DNA of 64,000 nt from an uncultured Rivularia sp. (GCA_963665115.1 OY762007.1:1152001-1216000), one strand, 5' to 3'. Shown: positions 10,898 to 56,393, counted from the first letter of the stretch. The notes: generated from the letters alone by a model not told the origin. Program-made: numbers and translations.

Positions 10898-10962
10898 CCA
10901 TGCCCAATGCCCCATGCCCAATTACCAATTACCAATTACCAATTACCAATTACCAATTACCA
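10898..10962. repeat. STRR heptamer tract (TGCCCAA/TTACCAA)
   Basis: Tandem 7-mers; they create a spurious N-terminal extension in the ORF track. Confidence 0.85.
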
Positions 10963-10972
10963 GTTTTCAAAA

Positions 10973-12560
10973 ATGATTAAAAGCTTTAAATTCTTCTTTC
11001 TTCTTTCTTCTTGCTTCTGCTTTCTCTTAACTACTCCTGTCAAAGCAGAATCTGGGATGAGCCAGGTAACGAATGTCAATCAATTAAGCGATGTTCAACC
11101 AACTGATTGGGCGTTTCAAGCTTTGCAATCTTTGGTTGAAAGGTATGGTTGTATTGCTGGATATCCCAACGGCACTTTTCGCGGCAATCGGGCTATGACT
11201 CGTTATGAATTCGCTGCTGGGCTTAATGCTTGTTTGGATAGAGTTAATGAATTGATTGCAACTGCTACTACTGATGTGGTTAGTAGGCAAGATTTAGAAG
11301 TTTTGCAGAGGTTACAGGAAAGTTTTGCTGCTGAATTAGCAACTTTACGCGGTAGGGTAGATGCTTTAGAAGTGCGTAGTGCGGAATTAGAAGCCAATCA
11401 GTTTTCTACAACTACTAAGTTGAGGGGACAAGCAATTTTTGCTGTTAACGGTGGTGGTTTTGATGGGAACAGTATTATTGATGCTGCTGGGAGAACAGTT
11501 GCTAATGATGACCCCAATACCACAATGATATTTAGGGCTGGATTCGATTTAGATACCAGCTTTAACAAAACTGACTTATTAAAAATGCGTTTGGAAGCCG
11601 GAAGCGGTATATTAGGGCCAAACGGCCAACCCGACGGTGGTAGAGATAATGCCGCAGGTTTCTTGGAACCATCTTTCGGAAGTGCTTTGGATTATTCGAT
11701 TAATCCCCCTACAGACAGGGATATCGAGTTATCGAGACTTTATTACACCTTTAAACCCAGTCAAAATTTAGCAGTTACCATCGGGCCCGAGTATGCGTGC
11801 TTCTGATTTTTTAGACTTTAATAGTTATGCCAAACTCAGTTTCCGCGACTTTAGTACTCAAGCCTTTGTTAATAACTATGTAATGTTCCCCATCGAGTTT
11901 CCCAGTGCTGGTGCATTAATTGATTGGAAACCCAATAAAGGAGCTTTTTCCGTCAGGGCTGCTTATACCGCAGCAGATGCAGCAAATCCCAGCAACCAAG
12001 GCGGAATTATTGGCAATGCGCCTTTTATTAACGTACTCTATGACACCCCCAATCCTGGTTCACCTCCCGGAGTTGGAGGGGAGCGGGGTTTATTTGGGGA
12101 TAATTATCAAGGTGTAGTGGAAGTCGAATTTTCCCCTTCAAGGGATTTAGCTTTACGTTTGCAGTATAGCGGTGGAGAAGTATTTGATAACCATTTTGAA
12201 GCAATCGGAGCCAATTTAGAATTAACTCTTGCTAAGAAATTGGGTATATTTGGACGCTATGGTTACAGTAATTATGACAATACTCGGTTCGGCGATATCA
12301 GCCCTAATTATTGGATGGCTGGAGTTGCATTTAGAGACTTATTTACTAGAGGAGCTTTAGCTGGTGTAGCAGTCGGACAGCCTTTTATAGCAAACGAAAT
12401 CGGAAATTCAACCCAGACAAATTACGAAGCATTTTACAACTATCCAATTAGCCGCAACGTGCAAATTACACCCACACTGCAAATAATTGAAAACGCCGCC
12501 AATCAAGATGCTAACGGAACGATTTATACCGGAACGCTGCGGACTACTTTTTCGTTTTAG
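10973..12560 (+). CDS. Cyanobacterial SLH-domain outer-membrane porin (OprB/iron-uptake porin family), +1 frameshift at about 11788
   Basis: Signal peptide, SDVQPTDWAFQALQSLVERYGC, QFSTTTKL and C-terminal GTLRTTFSF. The two ORFs join by deleting one C in GGGCCCGAG. Confidence 0.9.
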
Positions 12561-17052: not shown

Positions 17053-18228
17053 TTATAAATACAAAGCTTCATATTCATAATCATCGGATATGGGTTCTGT
17101 TTTCCATACCAAACCTTCTTCTTCTTCACCTAAAGCAATATCTACATAAAGTCTTTCTACGGGTTTTTTGGCTTGGGCTTGGTTGCCGTCGAATGGCTGT
17201 AAGTCTTCTGTTAATAACATTAATTTTACGCCGACGGGAATCATTTCTCCCACGGCGGCAGGTCGTAATTCAAAGCGCCAGGTTCTATTTTGAATTTCAC
17301 CTTTTGCTTTTACTGATAGTTCGTATTCCGAACCCGAGATAGTAATCCTTTTAATTAATGTTGGTAGCTGTACTGGTGCTGCTATTCCTCTGGCACCTGC
17401 TAAATTTTGTTGTAGATCTGCGCTTGCCCAACCAAATGTTTGTGCAAATTCGGAAACTCCGTTTTGCATCCATTGGCGAATTGACCACTGTCTTTGCATT
17501 CCTTGACGTTTTTCGTACAATCCCTGTCTCCAGGCTCCATGCTCTAACAGCGCTCCCCATGAACTAAAAGGTATTTCTTGACGGGGGTTGATTAATTGGG
17601 GATTTCCTAAACGAGTTATTAAGTTTTCTGCTTGGGTTGTAGATAATTCCGCCATCGGAACAGTTTCATTTTTAGTGATTTCTTCGGGACAAAGTTGACG
17701 CGATATCCATAAAATACTTAAGTTGGAAATTAAATCTTCTTTGTCTAAACAATAAGCTTTTTCGTTAGCGTCGTAAGTTGCTTTTTCTTTTAAATTTACT
17801 TGGGATGTATAACCCCAAATTCTGATATATCCTTCTTCTACATTTACCTGTACTGCTACATAATAATCGGCGCTCCATTTGGGAATGTCTACCCATTCTT
17901 GAGGAATTCTTAATTCCGATATATCAAGAGCTTCGCTGGGAATCAATACCAATTTTTTATCGTTAAAAGAAATTCCCGTTCCGTTGGTAACTTCCCAAAT
18001 GCTTGGTAATGTTGCAGAGTTAGGAAATACTTTTGCGTCTGAAGAGTGTTCTTCTTTTAACCAAGGTAAAAATGCTTTTAAGCTTAAGCGGTTGAGATAA
18101 GCCATCCAACGACGATTGTCTGTAGAAAAGGCTTGGCTCTGCTCCCAAATTTTGCTTTGTTGCTCTTCGGGAATTTCCAACCATAGGTTTGTAGGATTGT
18201 TTAAAGTCAGCGTTTCTAAGTCAATCAT
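17053..18228 (-). CDS. DUF1822 family protein (candidate anti-sigma partner)
   Basis: ELRIPQEWVDIPKWSADYYVAVQVN and YIRIWGY. Directly downstream of a sigma-like gene; paralog of 55137-56384. Confidence 0.82.
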   Translation of the reverse strand: MIDLETLTLNNPTNLWLEIPEEQQSKIWEQSQAFSTDNRRWMAYLNRLSLKAFLPWLKEEHSSDAKVFPNSATLPSIWEVTNGTGISFNDKKLVLIPSEALDISELRIPQEWVDIPKWSADYYVAVQVNVEEGYIRIWGYTSQVNLKEKATYDANEKAYCLDKEDLISNLSILWISRQLCPEEITKNETVPMAELSTTQAENLITRLGNPQLINPRQEIPFSSWGALLEHGAWRQGLYEKRQGMQRQWSIRQWMQNGVSEFAQTFGWASADLQQNLAGARGIAAPVQLPTLIKRITISGSEYELSVKAKGEIQNRTWRFELRPAAVGEMIPVGVKLMLLTEDLQPFDGNQAQAKKPVERLYVDIALGEEEEGLVWKTEPISDDYEYEALYL

Positions 18229-18287
18229 AATTGCGGGCTTCCTTTTGATAATAATACGATTAATGTAAATTTATTTCTTTGTTCAAT

Positions 18288-19482
18288 TCAATTTAACTCT
18301 TGAGGTTTATAGTAGTTTTGTAGCCACTCCTCTAAAACTGTACTCATATAATCTAGTACCGACGAGTCTAAGGAAATATGCATCGATTCTTTTGTCCAAG
18401 TTGCTAGCTTGATTAGTAACATATCTTTACATTTACTGAGCTTACGAGAAATAGTGTATTGTTTTACTCCTAGTTCTTTCGCTATCTGGGATTGGTTTAA
18501 GTCTCCCCGGTAATAGTATTTGATGATATTTTGACCTTGCTCATCTAGCTCCCCGATGGCAGTGATTAATACATCACCGATCTTCGATTGCTGCGATTTT
18601 CGTTCTTCAATTTCTTCTTGAACTTCAATTTGCGAAAGTAAAGAATCTTGCCTGAGTTGCGGTAAAATATCTTGAAATTCTCCCGAATTATCTCCGGTAG
18701 TTGCATTCAAGGAAGTCATGTTGGGATAAAGATAAGCTCGTATTGCTTTAGCACAAGCAACCAAACATTTCTCTGCGGTTTCACCTTTACATTCGGGGGC
18801 CACTTTGAGAAAGTTGATGACGCTCTTTGTTATAAAGTTGAGCGATGCTTTGCCATACAGCATCATCGGGCTTTGCTAGTTTGCGAGTTCCCTTTTCTTT
18901 CCGGGGAGCGTACAAAGCTTGATAGGATTTCCATACAAGTACGTACCTTTCGACAATTTGGGGACTTAATCCAGCATTTTCTAAAGATTCTATCAAGCGT
19001 TTTTGAGTTACTTTTCGCAACAATCGCCAATCTGTGGAAATATCAACTTCTTTTTGCTGACGCAGTAATTCTTTTAATTCGCTGCTGAATATGGCGCTGG
19101 CGTAGTTTTTGATATTAAAACCCATATTGGGCTTAAAACCTTGCAATACTTTATCAGTTTTAGTGGCGATCGCTTGGAAGCAATCTGACAAAGTATATTG
19201 TCCACTTGAGAAATTAGTCGCTGTTTTATTGGCTGCCCAATAGCAAACTTCCTGTAAGTAAGCCGTTAAATGTCCGCTTGCTAAATTTTGGCTTTGAGAT
19301 TGCCATTCTTTGTACCAGTAAGACACCCAGAAATCTTCAGAATCTTCAGGCTTTGATAATTTTTGCTGACAATTGGTAATATTTCGCCGCAATCTACCAT
19401 CGCTAGCCCAACCGATGGCTCTATCTGCATCAAATTGCAGAAAAGTTGCAAATAATTCAGTTATTCCTTGACGAGAACGCAT
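18288..19482 (-). CDS. Sigma-70-family (HetZ-like) factor, +1 frameshift at about 18797
   Basis: MRSRQGITELFATFLQF, HLTAYLQEVCYWAA and a region-4 HTH (LNQSQIAKELGVKQYTISRKL). The ORFs join (SQSGP|ECKGE) on deleting one C. Confidence 0.82.
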
Positions 19483-19516
19483 AAATTTTACCACTCACGA
19501 ATGCATTATTACATCA

Positions 19517-19545
19517 TATATACAGGAATTTATATAGTATATGCA
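19517..19545 (-). promoter_or_regulatory. Degenerate copy of the TGCATA motif upstream of sigma gene 1
   Basis: Minus strand reads TGCATATACTATATAAATTCCTGTATATA; TATA at +25 but the CC is displaced. Confidence 0.4.
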
Positions 19546-19702
19546 GTTTTGTACTGTATCGACTATTGTAGATTCCTTGTTTTTAAAAGATTTAAAAATT
19601 TTATCTTTGATTATTTATGATTAAATTGTTACGAAAGAGTCAATTTTGTCAATACTTCTGAATAGGTAATTTTCAAGAAAGTGGAAAATTGGGATGCTCA
19701 AC

Positions 19703-19730
19703 TGCATAATTGACTAAATCTTCCCCCATA
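19703..19730 (+). promoter_or_regulatory. Candidate bipartite promoter TGCATAA-N15-CCCATA
   Basis: Motif match, divergent from sigma gene 1 and pointing toward the caspase gene. Confidence 0.6.
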
Positions 19731-20265
19731 GTATTAGTAGGGAACTATTACAGAAGTTGTAAAAAGCAAATGCTTAAAACTTACAGCATATTTAGTTTTG
19801 GTGAAGTACATTCTGACGGGCAGGGATGCCCATCCCACAAGACTTTCGGAATATAGTTTTGTACCTCATTTAGCTGCAAAGGGCTGTATTTTAATTATTG
19901 ACGACGGTTGCTTGGCAATGCAAATGTATGGTTCTTTGCTCCCGTTGTAACTATAAATATCCTATTGCTAAATATTCTTCCCTACTTCTTCTCGATTGCT
20001 GATTATCTTTAAACTATGGAAAATTTGATAGTTGAATCGTCAAAGCAAAGTTATAGAAAAGTTGAGTCGATTGTGACGAAGGATATTCCCTCATTTTTCT
20101 ATATGGATTGTTTATAATTCGAGTTATATAACTATAAATGCGATCTATTAAATTTATATTAAAATTTTGTGAAACATATTGAAAAAAGCAGGTTTATATG
20201 TGATAGCGGTTCAACTGGTGACGTTTTCCTAACTGTAGAAGAAGATTATTAGAGGTTTAGTAATT

Positions 20266-22407
20266 ATGGCTCCCGTCGGCATTGGTTCTAGCGATTCAAG
20301 TTATACATTAAAATCGGGTGAAGCTAAACTTTGGCTGTTATTGGTGGGTGTCAACGATTATCAAGATATAGGTTTACCTTCTTTACGTTATCCAGCTTTG
20401 GATTGTCAGGGTTTGGAGCAGTCATTAATTAAAGCTACTGAAGGATTTCCTAATAAGGAGATTGTGGTACATCACGATTTTGCTTCAAAAACGCCTATAT
20501 TAAAAAATATTCGGGAGAGTTTAAAGAAGATTGTCTTTTATTCTCAACCTGACGACTCCATAATGCTATATTTTTCCGGACATGGAATGTTAGATCCGAG
20601 TACCCAAGAAGCTGTATTATGTTTTTCCGATACCAACCAAAATAATTTATTAAATACTGGTTTACCGATGCAGGAATTGGTAGAAATTTTAAGTAAAAGT
20701 CCTGCAAAGCAACAATTATTATGTTTGGATACCTGTCATAGTGGTGATATGGCATTATTGGGTTCCGGTGGTAGTGCTAGAGATGCAGAAACACCCGTGA
20801 GCAATTCCACCCCGCAACTGATGAGCGTCTTGAGACAGCGAGCTTCTCAAAGCAAGGGATTTTGTGCTTTACTAAGTTGCGATCGCGGACAAAAGTCTTG
20901 GGAATTTCCCGAGTTGGGGCATGGGGTGTTCACCTATTATTTAATGCAGGGGTTGTCGGGAGAAGCTGCCGATACCACCGGATTTATTGATGCTGACGGC
21001 TTATATAAATATGTTTATCGTCAAACGGTACAGTATATTGATAAATTAAATTATCAAGTACGTTTAATTAATCAGCAAAAGCTGGCTCGTGGAGACAGTA
21101 AACTTTATCCGGAGTATCCTTTACAAACTCCTAAAAGAATTGTTGAAGGGGTAGGAGAATTAATTGTTGGATATAAGCCCAAGAAAGAAAATCGTCAAAG
21201 TCAATTAAGACGTGCTTTTGTGGTTGATGGGCTGTTAAATCGAGATTCGAGCAACAAGTTAAGTCTATTGCTGGCTGGTGCTGGTGGTTTTGAAGTCGAA
21301 TGTTTTCATCAACAAGATAAAAATTGGTCGGATATTCAAGGAGAAATTCAAAAATTTATCCAAACTACCCAGGAATTAAAAGCAGAAAATCATGGCATAG
21401 GGGGAGTTAACAACATATCCACCTGTTTATTATATTTACGGGGTTGCGTTAAAGAAACCGAAGATGGAGAAGGCAGATTAATTTTAGGTGGTGGAGCCTA
21501 TTTGAGTCGCAGTTATTTTAGAAGAATATTGCGTCAGGCCCAAAAAACACAGCAAATAGTAATATTAAATTTAGTCAGCCCGGATTCAAATCTTTCTACC
21601 GCACAGAATTGGATCGAAGATTTACAATGCTCAGCCGAATACGGACAATGTTTAATAATTACTCAAACATCCTTCGATAAATCGGAAGTCTTTTGCCAAA
21701 CCTTGATAGAAAGTCTTGCTGCGGCAAATTCTCAACTTGGATTACCAGTTGCAAAATGGATTACTCAATTACAAAAACTGTTGCAGAATAAAGATATTAA
21801 TTTAAAAACTTGGTTTTCCGGTACCCAAGCCATAATTGATATTTTACCAGGTGGTATCGATCGGGTATTTGAGGAAGTTAAGCAAGTTGAAATTAAGAAA
21901 GCAGCAGTAACGAAGCTTGCAAAACCATTAGCAACTGCACAAAATATACAGAATATAGTTTTAACAGCCGAAAATTACACTAGATTAGAAACATTGCTCA
22001 AACATTCAGTAGGAGTAATTGCATCGGCGATATTGCAACAGTGCATTGACAAATCGGCAAATAACCAAGAATTAATCGAAAAGCTGACAGATTATATATC
22101 TCTCCAGCAAAAAAGGCATTTTAAAAATCAAGCCAAAGTTATTTTAGAGTCTTCAGATATTGCCATTCAACCCCAGCTATCTAAATCGGCAGCAGTTGTA
22201 GGGCAAAGCATCGATAATGATTTTATCAAAGAATGCAAACGCGACTTGATTTATTTAATTGGCCCAATCGCGAATTTTGTTATTGAAGAGATATTGCAAT
22301 CTAATCCGCAGATTAGTGCAACCGACTTTGTAAACGAATTAGCAAAAAACGTACCCGACTCCGGAATGGCTGAAGAATTTAAACAGCGGATGTTAGAAAA
22401 AGGTTAA
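20266..22407 (+). CDS. Caspase-family (peptidase C14, orthocaspase-like) multidomain protein
   Basis: LLLVGVNDY, YFSGHG (His), LDTCHSG (Cys) and GHGVFTYYL. A degenerate middle domain and two C-terminal helical repeats (VGVIA / IGPIA) follow. Confidence 0.88.
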   Translation: MAPVGIGSSDSSYTLKSGEAKLWLLLVGVNDYQDIGLPSLRYPALDCQGLEQSLIKATEGFPNKEIVVHHDFASKTPILKNIRESLKKIVFYSQPDDSIMLYFSGHGMLDPSTQEAVLCFSDTNQNNLLNTGLPMQELVEILSKSPAKQQLLCLDTCHSGDMALLGSGGSARDAETPVSNSTPQLMSVLRQRASQSKGFCALLSCDRGQKSWEFPELGHGVFTYYLMQGLSGEAADTTGFIDADGLYKYVYRQTVQYIDKLNYQVRLINQQKLARGDSKLYPEYPLQTPKRIVEGVGELIVGYKPKKENRQSQLRRAFVVDGLLNRDSSNKLSLLLAGAGGFEVECFHQQDKNWSDIQGEIQKFIQTTQELKAENHGIGGVNNISTCLLYLRGCVKETEDGEGRLILGGGAYLSRSYFRRILRQAQKTQQIVILNLVSPDSNLSTAQNWIEDLQCSAEYGQCLIITQTSFDKSEVFCQTLIESLAAANSQLGLPVAKWITQLQKLLQNKDINLKTWFSGTQAIIDILPGGIDRVFEEVKQVEIKKAAVTKLAKPLATAQNIQNIVLTAENYTRLETLLKHSVGVIASAILQQCIDKSANNQELIEKLTDYISLQQKRHFKNQAKVILESSDIAIQPQLSKSAAVVGQSIDNDFIKECKRDLIYLIGPIANFVIEEILQSNPQISATDFVNELAKNVPDSGMAEEFKQRMLEKG

Positions 22408-22474
22408 AGGTTAAAGGTTAAAGGTTAAAAATGTTTACCAATTACCAATTACCAATTACCAATTACCAATTACC
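22400..22474. repeat. STRR tracts (AAAGGTT, TTACCAA) between convergent genes
   Basis: Visible tandem 7-mers. Confidence 0.85.
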
Positions 22475-22476
22475 TA

Positions 22477-23370
22477 TTACCTATTATCCTTATTTTTCAA
22501 CATATTCATTGCAATTTCCAAACTATACTTCATTCTATTAAAGGCTTCGGCTAAATCTCCGATTTCATCGTTACGTTGTTGACCAAAACTAGCATTCATA
22601 TCACCGACGCTAACTTGCTCGGCAACTGTAGAAATTCGTTTAATTCGCCCTAAAACGGTTCTTTTTAATAGTCCGTTCATTATTACAACTACGGCTGTAA
22701 AAATCATCGCCACAACTCCCATAACTATCATAAAAGACCGATTCGCATTTTGAAAAATCTTTTGGGCAGGTACATAAACAATTTGAGTGGCAACAATTTC
22801 ATTTAATTTCCATCCGTAGCCACTTTCTGTGCCATAAGTGTTTATCTGACTTTTCGGTGCTTTATCGACTGTAGTGTGACAGCGAAGACAACTTTCGTTT
22901 TTGATTTGAAAAGGTTTGGCAGTGTAATACAGTTGGGTTCCATTCTTATTGCGAAAACCCGATATAGATTTTGTATCTGGTTCCCGACGAAATCTGTTAA
23001 CAATATCAGCTTCAAAATCATCAGCTTTATCTCGTAAATTCGTCGGATTTAATGCCGCATCTTTATAGAAGTAACTGGCAAACTCTGGACTTTTACGAAA
23101 ATATTCAAAGGTTTCTCTAACTGAATAAGTTGGTATCGCTTCGGGAATAAACTCTTCTTGAGTTTCTAGTTTTGGCAATAATAAAGGTTGTACTCTGTCA
23201 TTTGTATAGGTTCTAATTGAATTATTCATTGCCATTAACGCGCTTGCTTTAGAATCTACCTCGCTCTCAGCTTTATCTTCTAATACATTTGCCAGCGATA
23301 TTCCACTGATTAGAATACCAATGACGAAGACAATTATTAAACTTAACGTTACTTTGGTTTCAATTTTCAT
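22477..23370 (-). CDS. DUF3365/Tll0287-like c-type heme sensor with HAMP domain, no output domain
   Basis: TM, periplasmic domain with LNPTNLRDKADDFE and CLRCH, TM, then HAMP (DEIGDLAEAFNRM). Confidence 0.85.
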   Translation of the reverse strand: MKIETKVTLSLIIVFVIGILISGISLANVLEDKAESEVDSKASALMAMNNSIRTYTNDRVQPLLLPKLETQEEFIPEAIPTYSVRETFEYFRKSPEFASYFYKDAALNPTNLRDKADDFEADIVNRFRREPDTKSISGFRNKNGTQLYYTAKPFQIKNESCLRCHTTVDKAPKSQINTYGTESGYGWKLNEIVATQIVYVPAQKIFQNANRSFMIVMGVVAMIFTAVVVIMNGLLKRTVLGRIKRISTVAEQVSVGDMNASFGQQRNDEIGDLAEAFNRMKYSLEIAMNMLKNKDNR

Positions 23371-23440
23371 AGTTTTAATGTGGTAATTGGTAATTGGTAA
23401 TCGGTAACTGGTAATTAGTCAACATCTTTAACATTTAACC

Positions 23441-24331
23441 TCAACCACCTCTTTTTTTATTAATCATATTCATGGCAATTTCTAAACTGTATTTCATTCG
23501 GTTAAACGCTTCAGCTAAGTCTCCAATTTCATCTTTATTTTGTTTGCCGAAATTAGCATTCATGTCACCAACACTAACTTGTTCTGCAACTGATGCAATT
23601 TTTTTAATTCGCTGTAATACGGTTCTTTTTAATAGCAAATTTATGATGACAACGACTGCTGTGAAAATCATCGCGACAATTCCGGTAATTAAGAGAAATG
23701 AGTCGCGAGCATTTGTAAGAATGCTTTCGGCAGGTACGTAAACTATTTGAGCGCCAAGTACTTCATTCAATTTCCATCCGAAACCATTTTCTCTTCCATA
23801 GGTTGCTAATTGACTTTTTGGTGCCCTTTCGGGAGTACTATGACAGCGAAGACAACTTTCATTTGTTACCGAGAAAGGTTTAGCTGTATAGTAAAGTTTT
23901 GTCCCCGATATTGTGCGATAACCCGATGAAGTATTCTTATCGGTATTTTTAAATTTGTTGACGATTTTCGTTTCAAAATTATCTGCTTTATCTCGTAAAT
24001 TAGTCGGATCTAATGTCGCATCTTTATAGAAAAAATTGGCATAATCTGGAGTACTACGAAAATATTCAAAGATTTCTCTGACGGAAAAAGCTGGTATCGA
24101 TTCTGGAATAAATGTATCTTGATTTTCTGCTTTTGGTAATAATAAAGGCTGTACTCGCTCGTTTGTATAGTTTCTGATGGCATTGTTCATTTCCATCAAC
24201 GCGCCTGCTTTTGAATTTACTTCTCCCTGGGCTTTTGTATTTAATACGTTTGATAGTGCAATTCCACTAATTAAAATACCAATTACAAAAACAATTATCA
24301 AATTTAAAGTTAATCGGGTTCCTATTTTCAT
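23441..24331 (-). CDS. DUF3365/Tll0287-like c-type heme sensor with HAMP domain (tandem paralog)
   Basis: Same architecture, with CLRCH and an identical HAMP tail. Confidence 0.85.
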   Translation of the reverse strand: MKIGTRLTLNLIIVFVIGILISGIALSNVLNTKAQGEVNSKAGALMEMNNAIRNYTNERVQPLLLPKAENQDTFIPESIPAFSVREIFEYFRSTPDYANFFYKDATLDPTNLRDKADNFETKIVNKFKNTDKNTSSGYRTISGTKLYYTAKPFSVTNESCLRCHSTPERAPKSQLATYGRENGFGWKLNEVLGAQIVYVPAESILTNARDSFLLITGIVAMIFTAVVVIINLLLKRTVLQRIKKIASVAEQVSVGDMNANFGKQNKDEIGDLAEAFNRMKYSLEIAMNMINKKRGG

Positions 24332-24351
24332 GATTTTTTATCCTTTTATAA

Positions 24352-24500
<149 letters not shown>

Positions 24501-24666
24501 TTTATATTAGTAATAAAACATAATTTTATGAAGAATAATTGGTTTGACGAAGCTTTTTATGCAAACTTTAAAATTATTATTTTTGAAAAATTATTTAAGT
24601 ATGATTATTTATAATTCTTCGTAATCTTCAGATAAAGATTTATTTTATACTCATACTCTTCTTGAT

Positions 24667-25566
24667 ATGATTTACATAATGAAAGTATATTTACTCCATC
24701 ATATTAAAATGAATTCCAAATTATCTCGACGTATATTTATATCACAAATGCTTTTATCAATAGCTGCTTGTGCGACAGAAGAAACAATATTTACTCGACG
24801 TTTAGTTATAGGTGTACTCAGTTATGGACAAGGAAAACAAACTGTAGAAAGATTAAGCGAATTTCGTGAATATTTAAGCGATAATCTCAAGACGATTATT
24901 GAATTGGAACCCGCTTTTAATGAAAGAATCGCCATCGAACGCATCAAACGTAAATCTTGGTCATTGGTTTTTGCTACTCCTGGTTTAGCTGCTATGGGTA
25001 TTGCTTATCATCAATATTGGAGTATGTTTCCTTTAAAATTAGATAGCAACTCTCGTTCTATAATTGTTGTCAATCAAGGTAGTTCTTTAAAGAAAATACA
25101 AGATTTACAAGGGAAAAAACTGGCTTTAGGACAACAGGGTTCGGCAACTGGTTATTATTTTCCACTTTTCAATCTTTACGGTTTGACATTAGCCTCGATC
25201 CGATTTTCTCCTACACCACAATTATCTTTAGAATTATTATCGCAAGGTGAAGTTGATGCTGCTGCTCTTTCTTTAGAAGAGTTTAATTTTTATAAATCAA
25301 AAATAGATTCTGCACAGTTTCAGATTTTATTTACAGATACTCATACTGCACCTTCCGGCTCTTTGATATGTAGTCCAATGGTAGAAAGAAAACTCGCCGA
25401 TGCGATTCGCAGTAACTTGAATAAAGCTCCTGATTCCTTGATTCAACAAGCCGAATATGTCCCAAAATCATCACCCCCCGATTATAAATATATGATCAGT
25501 GTGGTTAAAAGAGTTAATGCTATTACTGAAAATATTAACTCCAAACCCGTGCGTTTATTTAATTGA
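24667..25566 (+). CDS. PhnD/SsuA-type substrate-binding protein (probable lipoprotein; start may be 24709)
   Basis: SRRIF...IAAC, DLQGKKLALGQQGSATGYYFP and GEVDAAA. Confidence 0.78.
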   Translation: MIYIMKVYLLHHIKMNSKLSRRIFISQMLLSIAACATEETIFTRRLVIGVLSYGQGKQTVERLSEFREYLSDNLKTIIELEPAFNERIAIERIKRKSWSLVFATPGLAAMGIAYHQYWSMFPLKLDSNSRSIIVVNQGSSLKKIQDLQGKKLALGQQGSATGYYFPLFNLYGLTLASIRFSPTPQLSLELLSQGEVDAAALSLEEFNFYKSKIDSAQFQILFTDTHTAPSGSLICSPMVERKLADAIRSNLNKAPDSLIQQAEYVPKSSPPDYKYMISVVKRVNAITENINSKPVRLFN

Positions 25567-27173
25567 ATTGTAATATAAATGCTATCATGTCACGCTTACC
25601 TAAACCAATCTTTACTCCGGGACCTAACTTATACCAAATACCCGGTAAAAGTGGATATTTATTAATATATGTACCGTTAGAACTTCCCATATCTTGAATA
25701 TAGTAATCTTCTCCATCAAATTTAATTTGAGCATGGTTTCGAGAAACTACTTCCGAATGAGGTAAATTTGCAACGTCTATATTTTGACTATTATCGTTAT
25801 TTCCTTTACCGATATTAATTAATGAAGGAACTTCCGGTAAATCAAGTACTTGATTAGTTAAAGTATGAATTAATTGAGGAACGGGTGCTTGTAAATTTGT
25901 CGGTGAATCTGTTGCTGGAATAAATGTTTTTTGTGCTTGTAATCCGCTAATAATTGGTGCGGGTAGTGTTTGTTTGGGAGTTATGAGAATGTTGAAGATG
26001 AAAAATGCAATTACAGAATAAACAGCAGCACTGAAAAATACAACTTTGATTCCACCTAAGCCAATTGCTAAACCTCCGAGTATGGGGCCCGAGTGCTTGC
26101 CCTAACGATTGCACGCTGGCATTCACAGCCATAAATCCAGCACGGGAATCTTGAGCGGATAATCCTGCTAATAATGCTTGAGATGATGGTAAAGCGAATG
26201 CTAATGCTACACCAAATAAAGCGCTAGGAATTAATAACAGCCAGGGGTTAGTTATTAACGGAATCATTATTAATGCTACCGCACTGATGGGAAAAGAAGT
26301 TTTAATTAAAGTTATTTCCGAAAACCTTTGAATTAACCATCCCAATTGAGAAGCACTTATCGCAACAGCCAAGGACATTACACATAATATAATTCCATTC
26401 ATAAACCCAGAAGCACCAAGATTAACCCCTGCAAAAATTGGTATGTAGGTTATAAAAGCCCCAAACTGAATCATAAATATGGTACCCACCGCAAATAATA
26501 ATCCCATCACGGAACGGTTATTAACGCTATTCCAAGTACCTTTGAGATAAACTTTTAAACTTTCTTGTTTTACATTAGCAGGTCTTTTTGGTAATTTTAA
26601 AACCATGATTACCAGCATTACCAAAGGAAAAGCTAAAACCGAAAGTAGAAATGGGTACGACCAATTTAGACTTCCTAAAGCTCCACCCACCAACGGGTAA
26701 ATTGCCGAAGATATGCCGATTACAGCAGCATTGATGGACATTGCCGCACCCAACATTCTACCTTGGTAGAGCATGGCAATCATCGTTAGCGATAAAGCAT
26801 CTAGAGGAGCAGCACCCAATCCTTGTAAAAATCGCAATCCGAGAACAGAAGTGAAAGTACCCGCAAAAGAAATCGAAGCTCCCGCGATCGCAAACAATAT
26901 TAAAGCCGGAATCAACACTTTGCGAATTCCAATCCGATCTGCCAAAACCCCTAAAATAGGAGTTGCAAGACCGATGGGTAACACAAAAAGCGTCATCACC
27001 AGTTCAATTTCCCTGGTAGAGACATTAAATACTTCCGTCAGACTCGGTAATATTGGAGCAACCGTTTGTCCTCCCATAATAGATATCAAAGTTACACCAA
27101 TAATGATGTAAAGATTTTTATCCTGAGCGATATTTGGTGTATTTTTCTGCTCTGCTTGAACTGATGTATTCAC
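25559..27173 (-). CDS. MFS transporter fused to a C-terminal FHA domain, +1 frameshift at about 26087
   Basis: MFS motif GVLADRIGIRKV. After removing one C in GGGCCCC the frame reads GPILGG...INIGK...VSRNHAQI...IQDMGSSNGTYIN...FILQFN*. Confidence 0.85.
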
Positions 27174-27790: not shown

Positions 27791-28897
27791 TTAAAATATT
27801 TCACAAGCAACTCGGAAGCCGTTTTCTGGGATGAGATTAGTTCGGTCTACCTTAAGACGATAAGCAGAATGACACTTATCAGGACTGACTCTCCATGAAC
27901 CACCACGCATCGAACGAATTATACGACTTTGGTAATTAATCCATGCGCTACCATCTAATGGTAATTTTTTATAATCATCAAGCCAAGTATCTTCGCACCA
28001 TTCCCATACATTTCCGTGCATATCGTATAACCCAAAAGCATTAGGAGGGAATTGTCCGACTGGGGTTGTTTTTCCCCTGGATTCACCTTTTGGCTCATCT
28101 GCATAGCTGCTTGTGTGAGCGAAATAATTAGCTAATTCGCTGGTAATTGTCTCTCCATAATGGAATGGTGTGATAGTTCTGGCTCTACAAGCATATTCCC
28201 ACTGAGTTTCACTAGGTAATCTGTATTCTTTCCCTGTAGCTTTTGATAATCTCGCACAAAATTCTGCTGCGTCAGACCGAGTAACTCTTTCTACCGGACG
28301 ATTTTGATGTTTTCCTTCATAGTTAGAAAGTTCTGAGTATAAATCTCGCTTAATCTTGAGTAATATAGCTATTGCTTTCCATTGTGCTTGAGTAACTGGG
28401 AATTTCCCCATATAAAATGGTTTTATTGTGACTTGATGCTGTGTTCCTTTGTCTTCCGGTGAACGCATCAAAAATGTCCCACCGGGAATATAAGCCATTT
28501 CCAACTCAATATTATTACCCAAATCTTCCACAAAATATTTCGCTAAATGCTGCTGACGTTGAATAATTTCACCACAACGGTTTACAGTTACTACTTCAAT
28601 TGATTCCAATCCTTCTAAAGCTTGTTTTACCTTCTGTTCCGATAAAGGAGCTAATAAGGAATAGACTTTGATTTGAACTTGTGGTGATTCATCTTCTAAA
28701 GCTTTGATAACCAAATCCAAACCTGGTTCCCCATAATTCAAAGCTTGTTGAAGCGCTTTTATCCTCACCTGTGGATTTGAATTACTCAACCGCAGTTTTA
28801 CACCTTCAATTCCACCAAGGACTGCTGCATGTTTTGGAGGCGGATTTTTCCCACCGAGTACTGCATCGTAGGGTTTAGGATTTTGATTATCTGACAT
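27791..28897 (-). CDS. FGE-sulfatase/SUMF1 (CLec-fold) protein with N-terminal HEAT-like module
   Basis: PYDAVLGG, VTQAQW, RLPSETQWEYACRA, NAFGLYDMHGNVWEWC and RGGSW...GFRV. Confidence 0.88.
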   Translation of the reverse strand: MSDNQNPKPYDAVLGGKNPPPKHAAVLGGIEGVKLRLSNSNPQVRIKALQQALNYGEPGLDLVIKALEDESPQVQIKVYSLLAPLSEQKVKQALEGLESIEVVTVNRCGEIIQRQQHLAKYFVEDLGNNIELEMAYIPGGTFLMRSPEDKGTQHQVTIKPFYMGKFPVTQAQWKAIAILLKIKRDLYSELSNYEGKHQNRPVERVTRSDAAEFCARLSKATGKEYRLPSETQWEYACRARTITPFHYGETITSELANYFAHTSSYADEPKGESRGKTTPVGQFPPNAFGLYDMHGNVWEWCEDTWLDDYKKLPLDGSAWINYQSRIIRSMRGGSWRVSPDKCHSAYRLKVDRTNLIPENGFRVACEIF

Positions 28898-29149
28898 ATC
28901 TTCTATTAAGTTTGGGAACTACCTGAAAATTATTATTCCCAACTCACCCGTGAAATAATCATCTCAAATCAAAAAGCAGGTGAAATCAATAGTTTCAGGA
29001 GTGCGATAAGCCTTCGTGCTTGACCGAAAGAATTTTAGATTTTGGATTATAAATCGTTTCAAGCAAGATGGTTTCAACTATGGGAACAATCTAAAATCCA
29101 AAATCGTTTGACTTAACTTTCATGATAAAATTCTCTTTTTATATAATAA

Positions 29150-29767
29150 GTGATGACAAATACTTCAAATTTCAACCGATTTACTTATGTAATTGGAGCA
29201 AATGATGAAATTGAAGATGAACTAATTAATTGGGTGACAAAATCGGAAGAATATATTAATCAATATTTTGAAGGATATAGAAGCCAAATTAATAAAACAG
29301 TTTTTGGAGATTGCGTATCGAAAATAGAGGCTCTAGCAGAATTATTTATATATGATGATAATTACTTATCGGATTTTAGAGGAGTAAGAGATATAGATGG
29401 TCGTTTGCAAGCTGGTGCCGTAATTTCCGAGCAGATAGGTGAACTTTACCCGTATGCAGAAGAAAGAAAATACTTATCGATAGACCCATTTACTACTCCT
29501 CCCTGGAATTGTTTAAAATTAGAGGGAATAGAGTTTCCTGAAAAAAGGAAAGGTGCGGCTACATGGTTGATGGCAGAAATTGTTCAAGAAACAATTGAGA
29601 CTGAAATTGAAGGAGTAACTAAAGTATTAGCAATTGATAGAGCAAGAAATTTTTATTTAGATATTGGATTTGAAGAAAATCCCGAGTATTCTAGAGAATT
29701 AATTTTGACAAAAGAAACAGCAAGAATTTTCTTAAATAAAGAATTGAGAACTAGAGGAGAGCAATAA
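29150..29767 (+). CDS. GNAT-fold-like hypothetical protein
   Basis: C-terminal KGAATWLMAEIV...ARNFYLDIGFE resembles GNAT motifs A and B. Confidence 0.55.
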   Translation: MMTNTSNFNRFTYVIGANDEIEDELINWVTKSEEYINQYFEGYRSQINKTVFGDCVSKIEALAELFIYDDNYLSDFRGVRDIDGRLQAGAVISEQIGELYPYAEERKYLSIDPFTTPPWNCLKLEGIEFPEKRKGAATWLMAEIVQETIETEIEGVTKVLAIDRARNFYLDIGFEENPEYSRELILTKETARIFLNKELRTRGEQ

Positions 29768-30039
29768 TGGATAAACAACATTATCAACCAACAGAAGAAG
29801 AAATAAAATGGCGAGAAAGATTAGACGAGTTAGGTATGACTGCAATGTGTGGTACACCTATGTCTGATGAAGAAAAAGAGCGAAGGCTTCAATCGGTAAT
29901 TGATGGTAGTTGTTTTAAGAAGTATCTGGAAGGAATATTACAAAGAAAGAAAAAGCTTTTAGAAAGATTAGCGGCTACCGAAAAAACCGAACAATTATTA
30001 AGGGATAAAATAGCAGAAATGGAAGCTAGAAAGAAATAG
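29767..30039 (+). CDS. Small coiled-coil hypothetical protein, translationally coupled to the upstream gene
   Basis: TAATG stop/start overlap and a GAGGAG RBS. Confidence 0.65.
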   Translation: MDKQHYQPTEEEIKWRERLDELGMTAMCGTPMSDEEKERRLQSVIDGSCFKKYLEGILQRKKKLLERLAATEKTEQLLRDKIAEMEARKK

Positions 30040-30275
30040 AAATAAGAAATTTATAAAAATACTAATTCGATACCGCAATAGTTTTTTGCAAATGTAGAAT
30101 CATCTCCGTATTTGAGCTTCTGTTCCGATAGGGGGATTGATAGTCATAGCTAGGAATAAAAATTTATTGTGATATCTACTGTTCCGGAGTCGGAATAGTT
30201 GTTTTTTTTAACGCAAAGGAGTGCTGAGTAAGTTATTCGTTAGTTTGATTATTTTGAGGCTCCGGGGAGTTGAGA

Positions 30276-31471
30276 TTAAAAGATATCGCAGACAACCCGA
30301 AAACTAAGCTTGCTCTTAATATGGTAGCGGTCATCGGTAAAGCTTGGAATTAATTCAAATTCGTCGTCGTGAAAAAAGCGTTGAGTGCAACGACACCAAT
30401 CAGCAAGTGAAAACCATGAACCAGAGCGTACTACTCGCTGAAAGGGACTTCCAAAAATAACATTCCATGCCTTAGTAATCCGCGAACTACCGTCTGTAGA
30501 CGCTCCTCTATAATTATCATGCCAGTTATCTTGGCACCATTCCCATACATTTCCGTGCATATCGTATAACCCAAAAGCATTAGGAGGAAATTGTCCGACT
30601 GGGATAGTTTGTCCTCGCCATTCTCCTTTGGGTTCGTCTGCATAAGTGAAGTTAGCATCATAATTCGCTAATTCACTCGTAATTGTTTCCCCATAGTGAA
30701 ATGGTGTTGTAGTCCCCCGGCTCTACAAGCACATTCCCATTCGGCTTCACTAGGTAATCTATATTTTTTTCCTGTTAGTTTAGATAATCTGGCACAAAAT
30801 TCTATTACATCGTACCAGGATACTCTTTCTACAGGACGATTATCTCCTTTGAAGTAAGAAGGTTCTAGTTTTAGTTTTCGCTCTATCTTAGATAATTTGG
30901 CTATTGCTTCCCATTGTGCCTGAGTAACAGTAAATTTTCCCATGTAAAATGGTTTTATTGTGACTTGGTGTTGAGGTTTTTCATAACCAAAGCGAGTTTT
31001 TTCATCTTCTGGTAAACCCATTAAGAAACTACCACCCCTGATATAAGCCATTTCCAAATCAATCCCATTACCCAAATCTTCCACAAAATATTTCGCTAAA
31101 TGCTGCTGACGTTGAATAATTTCACCACAACGGTTTACAGTTACTACTTCAATCGCTTCAAGCTTTAAATTACAAGGATTAAATTCAAGTAGAGCTTGTT
31201 TAACTTTCTGTTCCGATAAAGGGATTAATAAAGAATGAGCTTTGATTTGAACTTGTGGTGATTCGTCTTCCAAAGCTTTGATAATTAAATCTATTCCTGG
31301 TTCACCATAATTCAAAGCTTGGTGAAGCGCTGTTATTCTCACCTCTAGATTTTCATTATTCAATCGTTGCTTTACACCTTCTATTCCACCGAGAACTGCT
31401 GCACCTTCTGGAGCTTGATTTTGATTACCTAAAACTGCATCGTATGGTTTTGGTTGTTGATGATTTTCCAT
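30276..31471 (-). CDS. FGE-sulfatase paralog 2, frameshift in a G-run at about 30716
   Basis: ACRAG|TTTPFHYGETITSELANY continues into GLYDMHGNVWEWC once the frame is corrected. Confidence 0.83.
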
Positions 31472-31835
31472 AAGTAAGATATTGATTCCACCCTATTTGT
31501 TATGTCAGATATTTTTCTAAACTATATTAGTGAATTTATTTAAGATTCAGTTAGCGATCGCCTTTTGTCAATAAAAAAGCTTTTGAGTTGGAAATCGTTT
31601 TAAATAAAGGGTTTTATCTTCTATTCCGATACCGGAATTGATAATCCGAGTCGGATATGAGAAATTTATACAAATAGTAATTCTATACTGCAATAGTTTT
31701 TTACGAACTTAGAATAATCTCCGTGTTTTAGCTTCTACTCCGATAAAGGAATTAAAGGAATTCTAATTTTACTAATCCGGTATCGGTTGGGGTTTTTGAA
31801 AAAAGCACAGAAGTGCTGAATCAATAATTTTGAGA

Positions 31836-33059
31836 TTAAAAGACATTACAAGCGATGCGGAAGCCAACATAATAATGTCCAAAACTTTCGTAATCGACAA
31901 GTTTAAAACGTTTAGCAGAGCGTAAATAGTCAGGATTATCTTTCCAACAACCACCGCGTAATACTCGCTCATTAGAGCCACTATAATTGTGATGAACCCG
32001 TGGATTACCATTCTTAGGGGCTTTTTCATAGTTGCTATACCAGCTATCTTGACACCATTCCCAGACATTTCCGTGCATATCGTATAATCCAAAAGCATTA
32101 GGAGGGAATTTACCGACTGGGGCTATCTGGTTTCGGAATTCTCCTTGTGATTCGTTTAAATATGTATTGTTAGCTTTGTAATTAGCTAATTCGCTGGTTA
32201 TTGTTTTTCCATAGTGGAACGGTGTTGTTGCTCCCGCTCTACAAGCGTATTCCCATTCTGCTTCGGAAGGTAATCCGTATTTTTTTCCGGTTGCTTTTGA
32301 TAATCTCGAACAAAATTCTACAGCATCATGCCAGGTTATATCGCATACAGGACGATTTTTCCCACCAAAAAAACGAGAATCCGGGTCTAAATCTAGATTT
32401 ATCTTAGGTAATATAGCTACTGCTCTCCATTGTGCTTGAGTAACTGGATATTTCCCCATGAAGAAGGGTTTTATTGTGACTCTATGTTGGGGACGTTCGT
32501 TATTGCTGCTTAATTTCTCTCTTTTTGGTGAACCCATCATAAAAGTACCACCAGGAATGTAAGCCATTTCCAAGGTTTTATCATTACCCAAATCTTCAAC
32601 AAAATATTTAGCGTTAGCTAATCGCTGCTTTCGATAAAGTTGACGTTGGATAATTTTAGCCAGATTTTCAGTGAAGTATTTAGCTAAACTCTGCTGACGT
32701 TGAATTATCTCACCACTACGATTTACCGTCACAACTTCAATCAACTCTAATTTCATACTTAGAGGTTGAAATTCTTGTAATGCTTTTTTAACTTTAAGTT
32801 CGTTTCGGGGAATTAATAGAGAATAAGCTTTTGCTTGTACTAGTGGTGATTCATCTTCCAAAGCTTTGATGATTAAATCTATTCCTGCTTCTTTGTAATT
32901 TAAAGCTTGTTCAACTGCTACTATTCTTATTTCTGGATTCGGATTATTTAATTTTCCCTTTACCCCTTGTATTCCACCAAGTACTGCTGCATCTTTTGAA
33001 GGTTGATTTTGACCACCCAATACTACGTCGTATGGTTTCGGATTTTGATTATCTGACAT
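31836..33059 (-). CDS. FGE-sulfatase paralog 3
   Basis: Same motifs; the start MSDNQNPKPYD matches paralog 1. Confidence 0.88.
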   Translation of the reverse strand: MSDNQNPKPYDVVLGGQNQPSKDAAVLGGIQGVKGKLNNPNPEIRIVAVEQALNYKEAGIDLIIKALEDESPLVQAKAYSLLIPRNELKVKKALQEFQPLSMKLELIEVVTVNRSGEIIQRQQSLAKYFTENLAKIIQRQLYRKQRLANAKYFVEDLGNDKTLEMAYIPGGTFMMGSPKREKLSSNNERPQHRVTIKPFFMGKYPVTQAQWRAVAILPKINLDLDPDSRFFGGKNRPVCDITWHDAVEFCSRLSKATGKKYGLPSEAEWEYACRAGATTPFHYGKTITSELANYKANNTYLNESQGEFRNQIAPVGKFPPNAFGLYDMHGNVWEWCQDSWYSNYEKAPKNGNPRVHHNYSGSNERVLRGGCWKDNPDYLRSAKRFKLVDYESFGHYYVGFRIACNVF

Positions 33060-33115
33060 CTGAAAAACGAGGAACTTCTTTATATTTATTGTTCCCAGTT
33101 GATTTTGAAAAAGAA

Positions 33116-33270
33116 TCATTTCAATTCACAGACAACTCGAAAACCTATATAGCCGAAGTCATTAAAAACATCACCACGATTTCCTCGGGAGCAACGATAA
33201 CGGTGTGCGGAACGACATAAATCGGAACCTTCAATCCAAGAACCACCCCGTAGAACTCTCATCCTATTGA
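33116..33270 (-). pseudogene. Orphan 3' fragment of a fourth FGE paralog
   Basis: RVLRGGSW...CRSAHR...IGFRVVCELK*, cut upstream by a palindromic element at about 33272-33370. Confidence 0.75.
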
Positions 33271-36594: not shown

Positions 36595-38824
36595 ATGGAT
36601 GATAATTCAATACAGCCATCTATCGCTGCTTTAAAAGAAAACATAACCCAGGCACAATTAGTAGCAGCTTCCTCGACTACCAACCCCGATTTATTGCGGG
36701 AATTAGCATTATTTAACGATGAAAAAACTCGCGAAGCAGTTGCGAGTAATGCGAATACTCCACCCGACGTGCTTGTACAGCTAGGAGAAGAATTTCCATC
36801 TCAATTGTTAGATAATCCCGTATTTCCACTATTGCTTTTAGAAAATCCTAATTTTATTAGAGAAATTCCTTTAACTACTTTGAGGAGTATTCTTCAACAG
36901 GAAAACGTTCCGGATTACATCTTGGAGCAAGCAGCAGATAAAGCAGATATGGGAGTGCAATTAGCGCTTGCTAATAATATTAAAACTAGTAGAAGTATTT
37001 TAAATCGGTTGAGTCAAAGCCGAAATTCCGAGGTTGTGGAAGCTGCGAATTTACACGTTAATCTTGTGGGGGAATTGACGGAGGGAGTTGAGGAGAAGAT
37101 TGAGGAGTTGGTTCAAAAAGTTATACCTTCTGGCTACCAAAATGATATTCGTAATCTTACATTTGTCCTTGCTCAAATCTGTTGTATTCCAAAATTTATT
37201 ATACAAGTTTGGGTTCAGGAAAAAACCTACATGATTATGTGTAGAGAGCTTGCTGAGTCTTTTGCTACTACTCCAAATATTCTTAAGTACTTAGCAAATC
37301 ATACCGATAGTTATACACGCATAAAATTAGCCATAAATCCTAATACCCCGACGGAAACTTTACATAAATTAGCAAATGAGCAACCTTCGTATATAGCTAG
37401 ATATGTAGCTATGAACCCTAGCACAACCAATGATTTATTAGAGATTTTGAGCAAACGTGAAGATAAAGAATTGGTTCTTCTTGTTGCTCAAAATGATAAT
37501 ACTCCCTTACCCGTGCTTCAAGAATTAACAAAAGATGTTGACAGAAGAATTGCACAAGCTGCCACCAAAAATTTAGGAGAGCAACAAGGAGAATACGAGG
37601 AGCAAGCAATTAGAAAAAAACCAGAAATTTCCACCGAAATTTTAGAAAAATTTGCACTAAAAGACCCCAAAAACTGTTGCTGAGCTACGGTATACACCCC
37701 CTAAATTGCTTTCCAAGTTATTCCAAAACGTTAATGAAAAACAAAAAAATGCTTTAGCCGTATATGAAAATATCGCTAGAAATCCAAATACACCAGTCAC
37801 AATTTTAGAACAGTTAGCTCACAATGAAAGTAGTTTTGTTAGACAGGCAGTTGCTATAAATTCTAGTACACCAACAAATATTTTATTTAAGCAGTTAGCA
37901 AGGGATGTACAAGTATACTGGAAAATTGCTGGGATGATGTCAACTGTAAAATCCAACGAGTACATTGAAGAAGACAATATATTAGATATTTTTGCGGAAG
38001 AAAGTACTAATTCTTTAGAAAACATTTTACAAAGATTAATACAAGAGGGAGGCTCATCTGCTCGTTTATTTTTAGCTCGTCGCTTTGATTTATCTACTGA
38101 TTTATTAGCAAAATTAGCTCAAACTTCGGAAGTTAGAGTCTGCGAAGCTGTAGCTCAGAATCCTAATACCTCTATTAGTACTTTGGATAAACTAGCCCAA
38201 TCACCAGAAACAGAAATTCGTCAAGCAGTTGCTCAAAATATTAATACATCAATCGAGAGTTTAGAAAAACTAACCCAATCACCAGAAACAGAAATTCGTC
38301 AAGTAGTTGCTCAAAATCCGAATACACCAATAAATCTTTTAGAAAAATTAGCTAAAGATAGAGACAGCAAAGTTCGGATGCATATTGCTTCAAATACTAA
38401 AGTGCCATCTAAAATTATAGATGAATTAGCGAATGACGAATCATTTGAAGTTTTCACACAAGCATTTAGGAATCCTTGCTTATCAACAAAAACTGTAGAA
38501 CGTATTCTTTGTAGTCAATATGCATCTTATTATATAAATTTTAATCCCGATTATCTCTCTTATCATCCGAACGTTAAGGCTTCAGTAATCAATCATTATG
38601 CTAATGTAGAACATTCTTCGATTTGGTTCAGTTTAATAATTTTAATTCAACCAGAAATTACCCAAGAATTACTACAGAAAAAAAGCATTTCTATTAGCTG
38701 GTTAGAACGTTTTGCTGTAGCTCAGAATCCACGAGCCGATAAAATTATCCTAAATAAGTTAGCTGAAGATTGTAACCAATTCGTTCGAGCAGCGGCAAAA
38801 GGTACAATTATATCCCTTGCATAA
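36595..38824 (+). CDS. Leucine-rich-repeat-variant (LRV/HEAT-like) repeat protein, frameshift at about 37670
   Basis: Repeated AVAxNPNTP...LEKLA units in both ORFs. They join as KDPK|TVAELRYTPPKLL after removing one base from CCCCAAAAA. Confidence 0.82.
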
Positions 38825-42251: not shown

Positions 42252-42447
42252 GGGGGGAGAGGGGACAAGGAGACAAGGGAGGGAATAATAAATCGAGTTT
42301 ATGATGATTCAAATATATGAATTAAAATGTGCTGAAATCTTTACCCAGTCCTATTCATAGGACTTTCGCTATTAGCTTGGGGTTTGCAACCCCAAGGGTG
42401 GGAATATTCACCAATCAATTTGATATAACCCAAGCGGGTGGGAATAT

Positions 42448-54959: not shown

Positions 54960-55136
54960 ATTTCCGAGCAGGTAAACCTTTCGAGTATAAAATTATATTT
55001 TATTTTGACATCTTTGGGGGCTACTTAAATATTAAACAATTCTGTTTTTATAGTACGACTCCTTGAGCAAATATAGAATCTGTACCAAAAAAATGCTACC
55101 CAAATTACTAGCTGAATCTACTTGTTACTCATGCTT

Positions 55137-56384: not shown

Positions 56385-56393
56385 TTTAAAAAA

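Follow-up and report, generated by a model that had tools for sequence, protein, structure and literature searches.

A gene cluster at positions 17053-27173 of a 64,000-nucleotide stretch of DNA from an uncultured Rivularia sp. (GCA_963665115.1 OY762007.1:1152001-1216000; the window, to which all plain coordinates refer) encodes a C14 caspase with an intact catalytic dyad, a second, dead caspase domain and two C-terminal helical repeats which, by sequence, are homologous to the tails of receptor-linked kinases; the neighbouring genes for a sigma factor, a DUF1822 protein and heme-c membrane receptors are conserved. The most likely explanation of this arrangement would be that the two repeats dock the caspase on the HAMP dimer of the receptors, that binding of a heme ligand changes the receptor HAMP, that the docked protease cuts DUF1822, a likely anti-sigma protein, after Arg280, and that the cut releases the adjacent sigma factor, linking gas sensing to gene expression. 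Taken as a whole, the model in which a receptor-docked caspase frees sigma by cutting DUF1822 is tentative, and we give it slightly less than an even chance.

The caspase has the His-Cys dyad of C14 enzymes (orthocaspases) within a caspase fold. His106 and Cys157 are each present in 119 of 120 homologues, with one gap, and Asp46, His106, Asp155 and Cys157 are each conserved in 72 of 73 caspase sequences. No hydrophobic helix was found in the protein, and the Pfam and NCBIfam matches likewise agree with the original prediction, made from the sequence of the window alone, of a sigma factor/DUF1822 pair divergent from a soluble caspase with intact His and Cys. An AlphaFold2 (AF2) model (predicted local distance difference test score, pLDDT, 75) consists of three units, the caspase fold starting at residue 21, and its closest Foldseek matches are MALT1 and metacaspases, reported to be Arg- or Arg/Lys-specific (PMC8283722). 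Asp46 and Asp155 would form an acidic, Arg-preferring S1 pocket; proteolysis after Arg or Lys is predicted from these conserved residues and from published work (PMC6426788, PMC8283722). The middle unit matches the first domain in profile-profile comparison (probability 94%, E 1.4e-7; reversed control 1%, E 0.056), and it is catalytically dead: Arg replaces the His (Arg392, present in 70 of 73 sequences) and the Cys is lost. The third unit comprises the DUF8082 repeats, for which the precomputed PF26309 annotation is present on almost every full-length homologue, across many genera of Nostocales. Both repeats have a helix of the G-P-I-A type, with G and P each in 115/120 homologues in repeat 2, and G in 113/120 and P in 55/120 in repeat 1. 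Sequence searches of the PDB with the repeats gave no useful match.

It is this tail that connects the protease with the receptors. In Pseudomonas azotoformans, a Cache-heme/HAMP receptor binds a neighbouring Ser/Thr kinase at ~90 nM, and cryo-electron microscopy places the contact in two C-terminal helical bundles of the kinase, with IGP[LI]A helices (bioRxiv 10.64898/2026.05.25.727664). Profiles built from the caspase repeats only match the tails of all three proteobacterial kinases compared, which are encoded right after genes of Cache-heme/transmembrane/HAMP (CHH) receptors and do not include the P. azotoformans kinase; the best domain scores were 14.9-24.5 bits, against 5.6 in 1000 shuffles. 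On this evidence the DUF8082 repeats are homologous to receptor-linked kinase tails, and they would very probably bind the HAMP dimer as the Pseudomonas kinase does. An earlier suggestion that the helical repeats contact the HAMP tail thus gains backing from an experimentally studied pair. The receptors of the two systems have a common anatomy (Cache-heme domain, CxxCH, two transmembrane helices, terminal HAMP, no distal Cys), the partner gene is adjacent, and both partners terminate in a pair of helical repeats with a helix of the G-P-I-A type, the window protein having V for P in repeat 1. The differences are that our locus is cyanobacterial, that a caspase-type protease takes the place of the Ser/Thr kinase, which is missing from the locus, and that a sigma/DUF1822 pair and a PhnD-like protein are added. 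The main text of that preprint does not mention caspase, protease, sigma, cyanobacter or phosphonate.

DUF8082 repeats also occur, as judged by eye, fused to NarX-type histidine kinase-like proteins (L130:8536-9846, L131:6046-7791, L118:15407-16999 and L160:15372-16592), three of these four genes lying beside heme-domain genes. This suggests that the DUF8082 tail may be a general plug for several outputs. Two proteobacterial CHH-kinase pairs (L233, L235) were seen within or beside type VI secretion clusters.

Conservation of the neighbourhood agrees with a functional connection. When two duplicate records had been dropped and two unclassified rows excluded, the stretch retrieved around a repeat-bearing caspase contained a CHH gene in 39 of 46 cases, against 0/23 for caspases of the STAND type; with at least 3 kb of downstream sequence, the count is 38/42. 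Sigma and DUF1822 genes lie beside 43/46 repeat-type and 13/23 STAND-type caspases, so that the synteny across Nostocales which had been named as a check was borne out. Among 24 loci with the full architecture, sigma and DUF1822 are present in 22 (the other two end at contig ends), the receptor in 23, a full PhnD-like gene in 19, MFS-FHA in 15 and a DUF8082 kinase in 12, mostly right after DUF1822. The order of the cluster is kept across Nostocales, and the linkage persists despite changes in gene order (L138, L185); on plasmid NC_011721.1, caspase, sigma and DUF1822 genes all run in one direction, and CHH and PhnD lie beyond the origin at a distance of ~5.5 kb. The opposite view, that the sensor genes lie next to the sigma/DUF1822/caspase genes by coincidence, could appeal to the opposing strands, the lack of an operon and the common gene order of kin, yet it is highly improbable, as the caspase itself bears receptor-linked repeats and the linkage survives rearrangements and spans families.

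The origin of this combination can be approached from both sides. In other cyanobacteria, the N-terminal unit of caspase and dead caspase carries an nSTAND1-WD40 tail, at ~45-53% identity. These orthocaspase-STAND-WD40 proteins (PMC8283722) share the unit and often have the same sigma/DUF1822 subfamily nearby, whereas the window protein ends in two DUF8082 repeats, a domain missing from the accessory-domain table of that article. In a FastTree tree of 73 caspase rows with a midpoint root, a branch with support 87 sets off 47 repeat-bearing rows together with one truncated row, among STAND types, and a single swap of the STAND-WD40 tail for DUF8082 repeats is plausible. Around the receptor, in 20 regions surrounding the best matches outside our own sequence (of 37 places), all of them caspase-free, a DUF8082 kinase occurs in 13, a PhnD-like gene in 15, adjoining the heme gene, and caspase, sigma or DUF1822 in none. 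The locus looks like a hybrid: a sigma/DUF1822/caspase core, with a kinase docking tail in place of STAND-WD40, joined to a CHH/PhnD/FHA-transporter module. Within it, the PhnD-like and MFS-FHA proteins are part of the receptor/kinase module and, as the counts at the 24 loci indicate, dispensable. A second CHH locus of the same genome (L051, C1:5566241-5573026) has a receptor, a kinase with one DUF8082 repeat, a PhnD-like gene and an FHA-ABC transporter, so that FHA-fused transporters flank both CHH loci; the L051 receptor and kinase are both frameshifted in the assembly. A solitary Ser/Thr kinase gene (L052, C1:2561923-2563395) encodes two DUF8082 repeats and has no receptor gene close by; its product could share the window receptors. 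At L179, a kinase-DUF8082 gene and an FHA-ABC gene stand directly before sigma and DUF1822, with no caspase in the stretch.

Receptors A and B each have a Tll0287-like domain with one CLRCH motif and no further Cys, two transmembrane helices and a terminal HAMP with no output domain after it, as in CHH receptors; outside the genus, the receptor is single-copy in most relatives. Two output-less heme-c/HAMP proteins, a PhnD-like protein and MFS-FHA, all named in the original prediction, were thus recovered by Pfam and NCBIfam. It gave the input as redox or heme sensing; in view of the preprint work on a CHH receptor and the lack of a distal Cys here, a heme ligand such as nitric oxide (NO) is likelier than redox state. 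Heme NO binding, with slow NO release, was shown for the P. azotoformans protein (bioRxiv 10.64898/2026.02.01.703092), and NO raised HAMP phosphorylation in the Pseudomonas pair (bioRxiv 10.64898/2026.05.25.727664). A ligand of this kind may be the trigger here, which we hold to be possible rather than probable. The PhnD-like protein was rejected as part of a phosphonate ABC transporter: it scores 34 bits on the PhnD equivalog (cut-off 261), and its neighbours are CHH and MFS-FHA, not permease or ATPase genes. A PDB sequence search with it gave no useful match. In cyanobacteria, its gene is a habitual companion of CHH genes.

The candidate substrate is DUF1822. Its AF2 model (pLDDT 94.6) has an alpha/beta N-domain, a helical middle and a C-terminal beta-sandwich, unlike a tetratricopeptide repeat (TPR) protein, an identity that was rejected; the block of lowest confidence, 271-280 (pLDDT 62), is the linker before the beta-sandwich. 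Arg280 (codon 17389-17391) is Arg in 117 of 130 diverse DUF1822 sequences and Lys in 5, with variable neighbouring residues, and the bond Arg280-Gly281 in this GAR-G linker is the predicted cut site; that the window protease cuts there appears to us about as probable as improbable. The linker reads G/A/Q/V-A-R in 23/26 C14-linked rows and mostly MR, FR or LR in 11 CHAT-linked rows; a correspondence between motif and type of protease has no more than loose support.

A precedent exists in the heterocyst regulators of Anabaena PCC 7120, where the caspase-clan protease HetF cuts PatU3 between Arg117 and Ser118, and PatU3 inhibits the ECF (extracytoplasmic function)-type sigma factor HetZ (PMC9457339, PMC13342950). 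There, too, the protease cuts, after Arg, a sigma-inhibiting product of the gene that follows an ECF-type sigma gene, and DUF1822 resembles that product in the placing of an Arg and, weakly, in its C-terminal domain: comparison of the C-terminal domains of DUF1822 and PatU gave P 5e-4 and a probability of 32% (other cuts P 0.001-0.014; reversed 0.09-0.24), and PatU homologues keep Arg-Ser/Gly at a place like that of Arg280. With DUF1822 clusters excluded, the three nearest Atlas clusters are all PatU, at 0.81-0.82, where scores <0.9 serve as leads only. DUF1822 is therefore a likely but unproven distant homologue of PatU, and, by analogy, it probably holds sigma in the same way as PatU does HetZ. 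The systems differ in that HetF is a divisome CHAT protease without a heme receptor, and that they are not orthologous: orthology to HetZ and PatU was ruled out, as NF037963 matches three other places in the genome, which has a separate hetZ-patU locus, and full-length hhalign gave 4% for sigma with HetZ and 0.6% for DUF1822 with PatU. A PDB sequence search with DUF1822 yielded no useful match. Five short DUF1822 paralogues (e.g. C1:2878543-2879637) have an Asp-Leu...Glu-Cys motif, E-C-R in four, reminiscent of PD-(D/E)XK nuclease folds.

Each of the 12 DUF1822 genes in the genome comes immediately after a sigma-like open reading frame (ORF), and 10 of the 12 are at most 5 kb from a CHAT or C14 match, compared with 5.8% of random positions. 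Because of this excess, and because the order is kept across Nostocales, the proximity of sigma/DUF1822 to proteases is not due to chance. In a phylum sample of 301 genomes, 32 had a close DUF1822; among the 38 loci examined, of 41 places outside our own, sigma is present in 37, C14 of the window type in 10 and CHAT in 12. The intact sigma orthologue at L031 scores 103 bits on TIGR02937 (cut-off 42.9), and a PDB sequence search with sigma returned region-4 matches only. Kaur et al. (2021, PMC8195603) described ECF sigma and DUF1822 genes beside EACC2-caspase genes with variable C-termini and proposed sensing followed by transcription. Common to both systems are a caspase-clan protease, a variable C-terminal module and the neighbouring ECF sigma and DUF1822; here there is no EACC2, C14 caspase and dead caspase stand in place of EACC2-CHAT, the sensor would be a separate receptor reached via a docking tail, and DUF1822 models as alpha/beta plus beta-sandwich, not TPR. 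EACC2 was not found at the window caspase: the N-terminal 200 amino acids (aa) of a CHAT protein elsewhere in the window, inferred to be EACC2, match 12 places in the genome, none of them here. That protein, CHAT-CHASE2 with transmembrane helices, belongs to module 2 (52596-57923), which also has a long sigma-like gene and DUF1822, lies beside DUF928 and TPS genes, and has the layout described by Kaur et al. The reuse of the sigma/DUF1822 core with a swappable input, foreseen from the window, is thus supported by DUF8082 repeats here, STAND-WD40 in relatives and EACC2-CHAT-CHASE2 in module 2. On the other hand, the two pairings in one window, which had been taken as support for protease gating, add little, since the association was already in print (Kaur et al. 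2021, PMC8195603) and the genome has 12 sigma/DUF1822 pairs.

Caspase-clan proteolysis of an anti-sigma protein is also found in type III-E CRISPR, with Csx29, Csx30 and CASP-sigma. The logic is similar; no CRISPR genes are present here, and the window sigma scores 21 bits on NF041236 (cut-off 100).

Several observations weigh against the proposed mechanism. Repeat 1 of the window caspase reads G-V-I-A, with V at the P position. Seven of the 46 repeat-type caspases have no CHH gene in the stretch, which for 4 of them reaches 3 kb or more downstream, and the contrast of 39 to 0 may reflect a single origin, as the repeat-type caspases sit on one side of one branch. GAR is also common among 16 protease-free DUF1822 rows, and the protease labels follow a quick tree; neither full-length similarity to the HetZ-PatU pair is significant. 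Of the 38 close DUF1822 loci, 16 have no caspase-clan gene within ~9 kb (some being cut by contig ends), and 12 have CHAT instead. Alignments of ~220 bases upstream of the caspase, sigma, CHH, PhnD and MFS genes (10-25 loci) revealed no promoter motif shared between genes. Activation of the protease by ligand is the weakest step, because in the Pseudomonas pair binding is NO-independent and the receptor is itself the substrate of the kinase, the authors doubting direct control of the catalytic domain (bioRxiv 10.64898/2026.05.25.727664). Other explanations were therefore considered.

One is that the protease docks on the receptor and cuts the receptor HAMP, itself or another protein, the sigma/DUF1822 pair controlling only transcription of the cluster. 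The modification of HAMP itself that NO raises in the Pseudomonas system (bioRxiv 10.64898/2026.05.25.727664), the divergence of the sigma and caspase genes and the 16/38 loci devoid of a nearby protease would all suit this possibility, whose likelihood is low though appreciable; but sigma/DUF1822 accompanies caspase-clan genes of three different types, and the lone conserved linker Arg together with the HetF-PatU precedent fits DUF1822 as the substrate.

It could also be that the repeats are a membrane tether only, and that a DUF8082 Ser/Thr kinase sharing that receptor works the switch by phosphorylation, a signal which the FHA transporter would read as well, with the protease acting on DUF1822 downstream. 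Ligand-independent binding (bioRxiv 10.64898/2026.05.25.727664), the kinase at half of the 24 loci and the FHA-fused transporters at both CHH loci of the genome are in line with it. However, no kinase is present in the window locus or in the genus-level loci mapped, and the two DUF8082 kinases of the genome are >1 Mb away, one of them frameshifted, so that we regard this scenario as unlikely.

A third proposal would make DUF1822 an effector or co-activator of a defence or cell-death system, not an anti-sigma protein, as proposed generally for EACC2-caspase neighbourhoods. Such systems were framed as acting against invaders (Kaur et al. 2021, PMC8195603), the same caspase is also known with a STAND-WD40 tail, and Foldseek with the DUF1822 model returned restriction-endonuclease N-domains in two weak rows (E 0.04-0.06). 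Nevertheless, no Foldseek match reached E<=0.001, the gene before DUF1822 is sigma-like in 12/12 cases in the genome and at 37/38 other loci, and PatU is the nearest look-alike of DUF1822, which makes an effector role improbable.

The association of sigma, DUF1822 and caspase-clan proteases is a computational observation already printed in 2021, and the components are each known or predicted. The wiring of a caspase-DUF8082 protein to CHH receptors appears to be new, a new wiring and not a new class: no description of it, and no mention of DUF8082 or PF26309, was found in the literature searched, in which subscription journals are thinly covered; preprint supplements and the data of Figure 3H of Kaur et al. 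could bear on the wiring. Caspase homologues of cyanobacteria have long been listed in catalogues, but hardly any of their activators or substrates are known, and this locus names a candidate upstream receptor, docking surface, substrate and single bond, Arg280-Gly281 of DUF1822. If the model were true, the receptor-kinase mechanism of 2026 would be extended to a protease output, DUF8082 and DUF1822 would gain functions, and the heterocyst HetF-PatU-HetZ switch could join a wider family. The boldest form of the model, unlikely to hold in all its parts, would be that NO on an extracytoplasmic heme-c receptor activates a caspase/pseudo-caspase whose cut after Arg280 frees sigma, that DUF1822 is a distant relative of PatU, HetF-PatU-HetZ being a specialised member of a large family of caspase-gated sigma switches in cyanobacteria, with 12 pairs in this genome, and that DUF8082 serves generally to plug kinases, histidine kinases or proteases into heme receptors that lack an output domain.

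Features of the cluster, with positions in the window
Feature	Position	Strand	Evidence or remark
DUF1822 protein, 391 aa	17053..18228	-	Pfam PF08852 380 bits
ECF-type sigma-70 factor, ~400 aa when intact	18288..19494	-	one extra base at 18794-18795
C14 caspase gene	20266..22407	+	Pfam/NCBIfam
Catalytic C14 domain, aa ~21-262	20266..21051	+	PF00656 62.6 bits; His106 and Cys157
Second, catalytically dead caspase-like domain, aa ~315-527	21208..21846	+	profile-profile match to first domain
Two DUF8082 (PF26309) helical repeats, aa ~568-628 and ~651-712	21967..22401	+	precomputed PF26309
CHH receptor A, 297 aa, CLRCH at 161	22477..23370	-	PF11845 139.7 bits and HAMP
CHH receptor B, 296 aa, paralogue of receptor A at 70% identity	23441..24331	-	Pfam
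PhnD-like solute-binding protein	24667..25566	+	PF12974 82.5 bits
MFS transporter with C-terminal FHA, 537 aa when intact	25562..27173	-	MFS_1 and FHA; extra base at 26083-26087

The genes of the cluster form no single operon: 772 bases separate the sigma gene from the divergent caspase gene, both heme genes converge on the caspase gene, the PhnD-like gene diverges from the heme genes, and MFS-FHA converges on the PhnD-like gene. The statement that the caspase is followed by the sensor genes is thus correct as to order and not as to orientation. The sigma and MFS-FHA reading frames are each broken by one extra base within a G run beside GGCC. Both extra bases are missing from 4/4 close relatives compared, and that in sigma also from 3/4 near-identical runs of one study, the fourth run agreeing with the assembly; they are therefore probable assembly errors. 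In the one RNA run located, 0.07 of the words were present. The MFS-FHA break was compared against relatives only, and the gene is unbroken in the orthologous locus L031. That the genes are true pseudogenes was rejected, for both on the evidence of the relatives and for sigma also on that of the runs. Close homologues carry the source labels Rivularia or Calothrix. Elsewhere in the window, genes for OprB (10907-12560), an LRV-repeat protein (36595-38824), DUF928 (47848-48616) and TPS (49836-52137) each appear as two overlapping or abutting ORFs, which is consistent with frequent one-base errors in the assembly.

High-copy short intergenic repeats, visible as spikes in read depth, lie on both sides of the caspase gene (19780-19890 and 22400-22490). 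The cluster is followed by three HEAT and FGE-sulfatase paralogues (27791-33119); FGE domains are found repeatedly in the vicinity of caspase systems (Kaur et al. 2021, PMC8195603), but they were seen in only 3 of the 18 repeat-type loci mapped. Further on, a MoxR-type AAA ATPase gene stands with a DUF2201 metallopeptidase/VWA partner (40971-43449).

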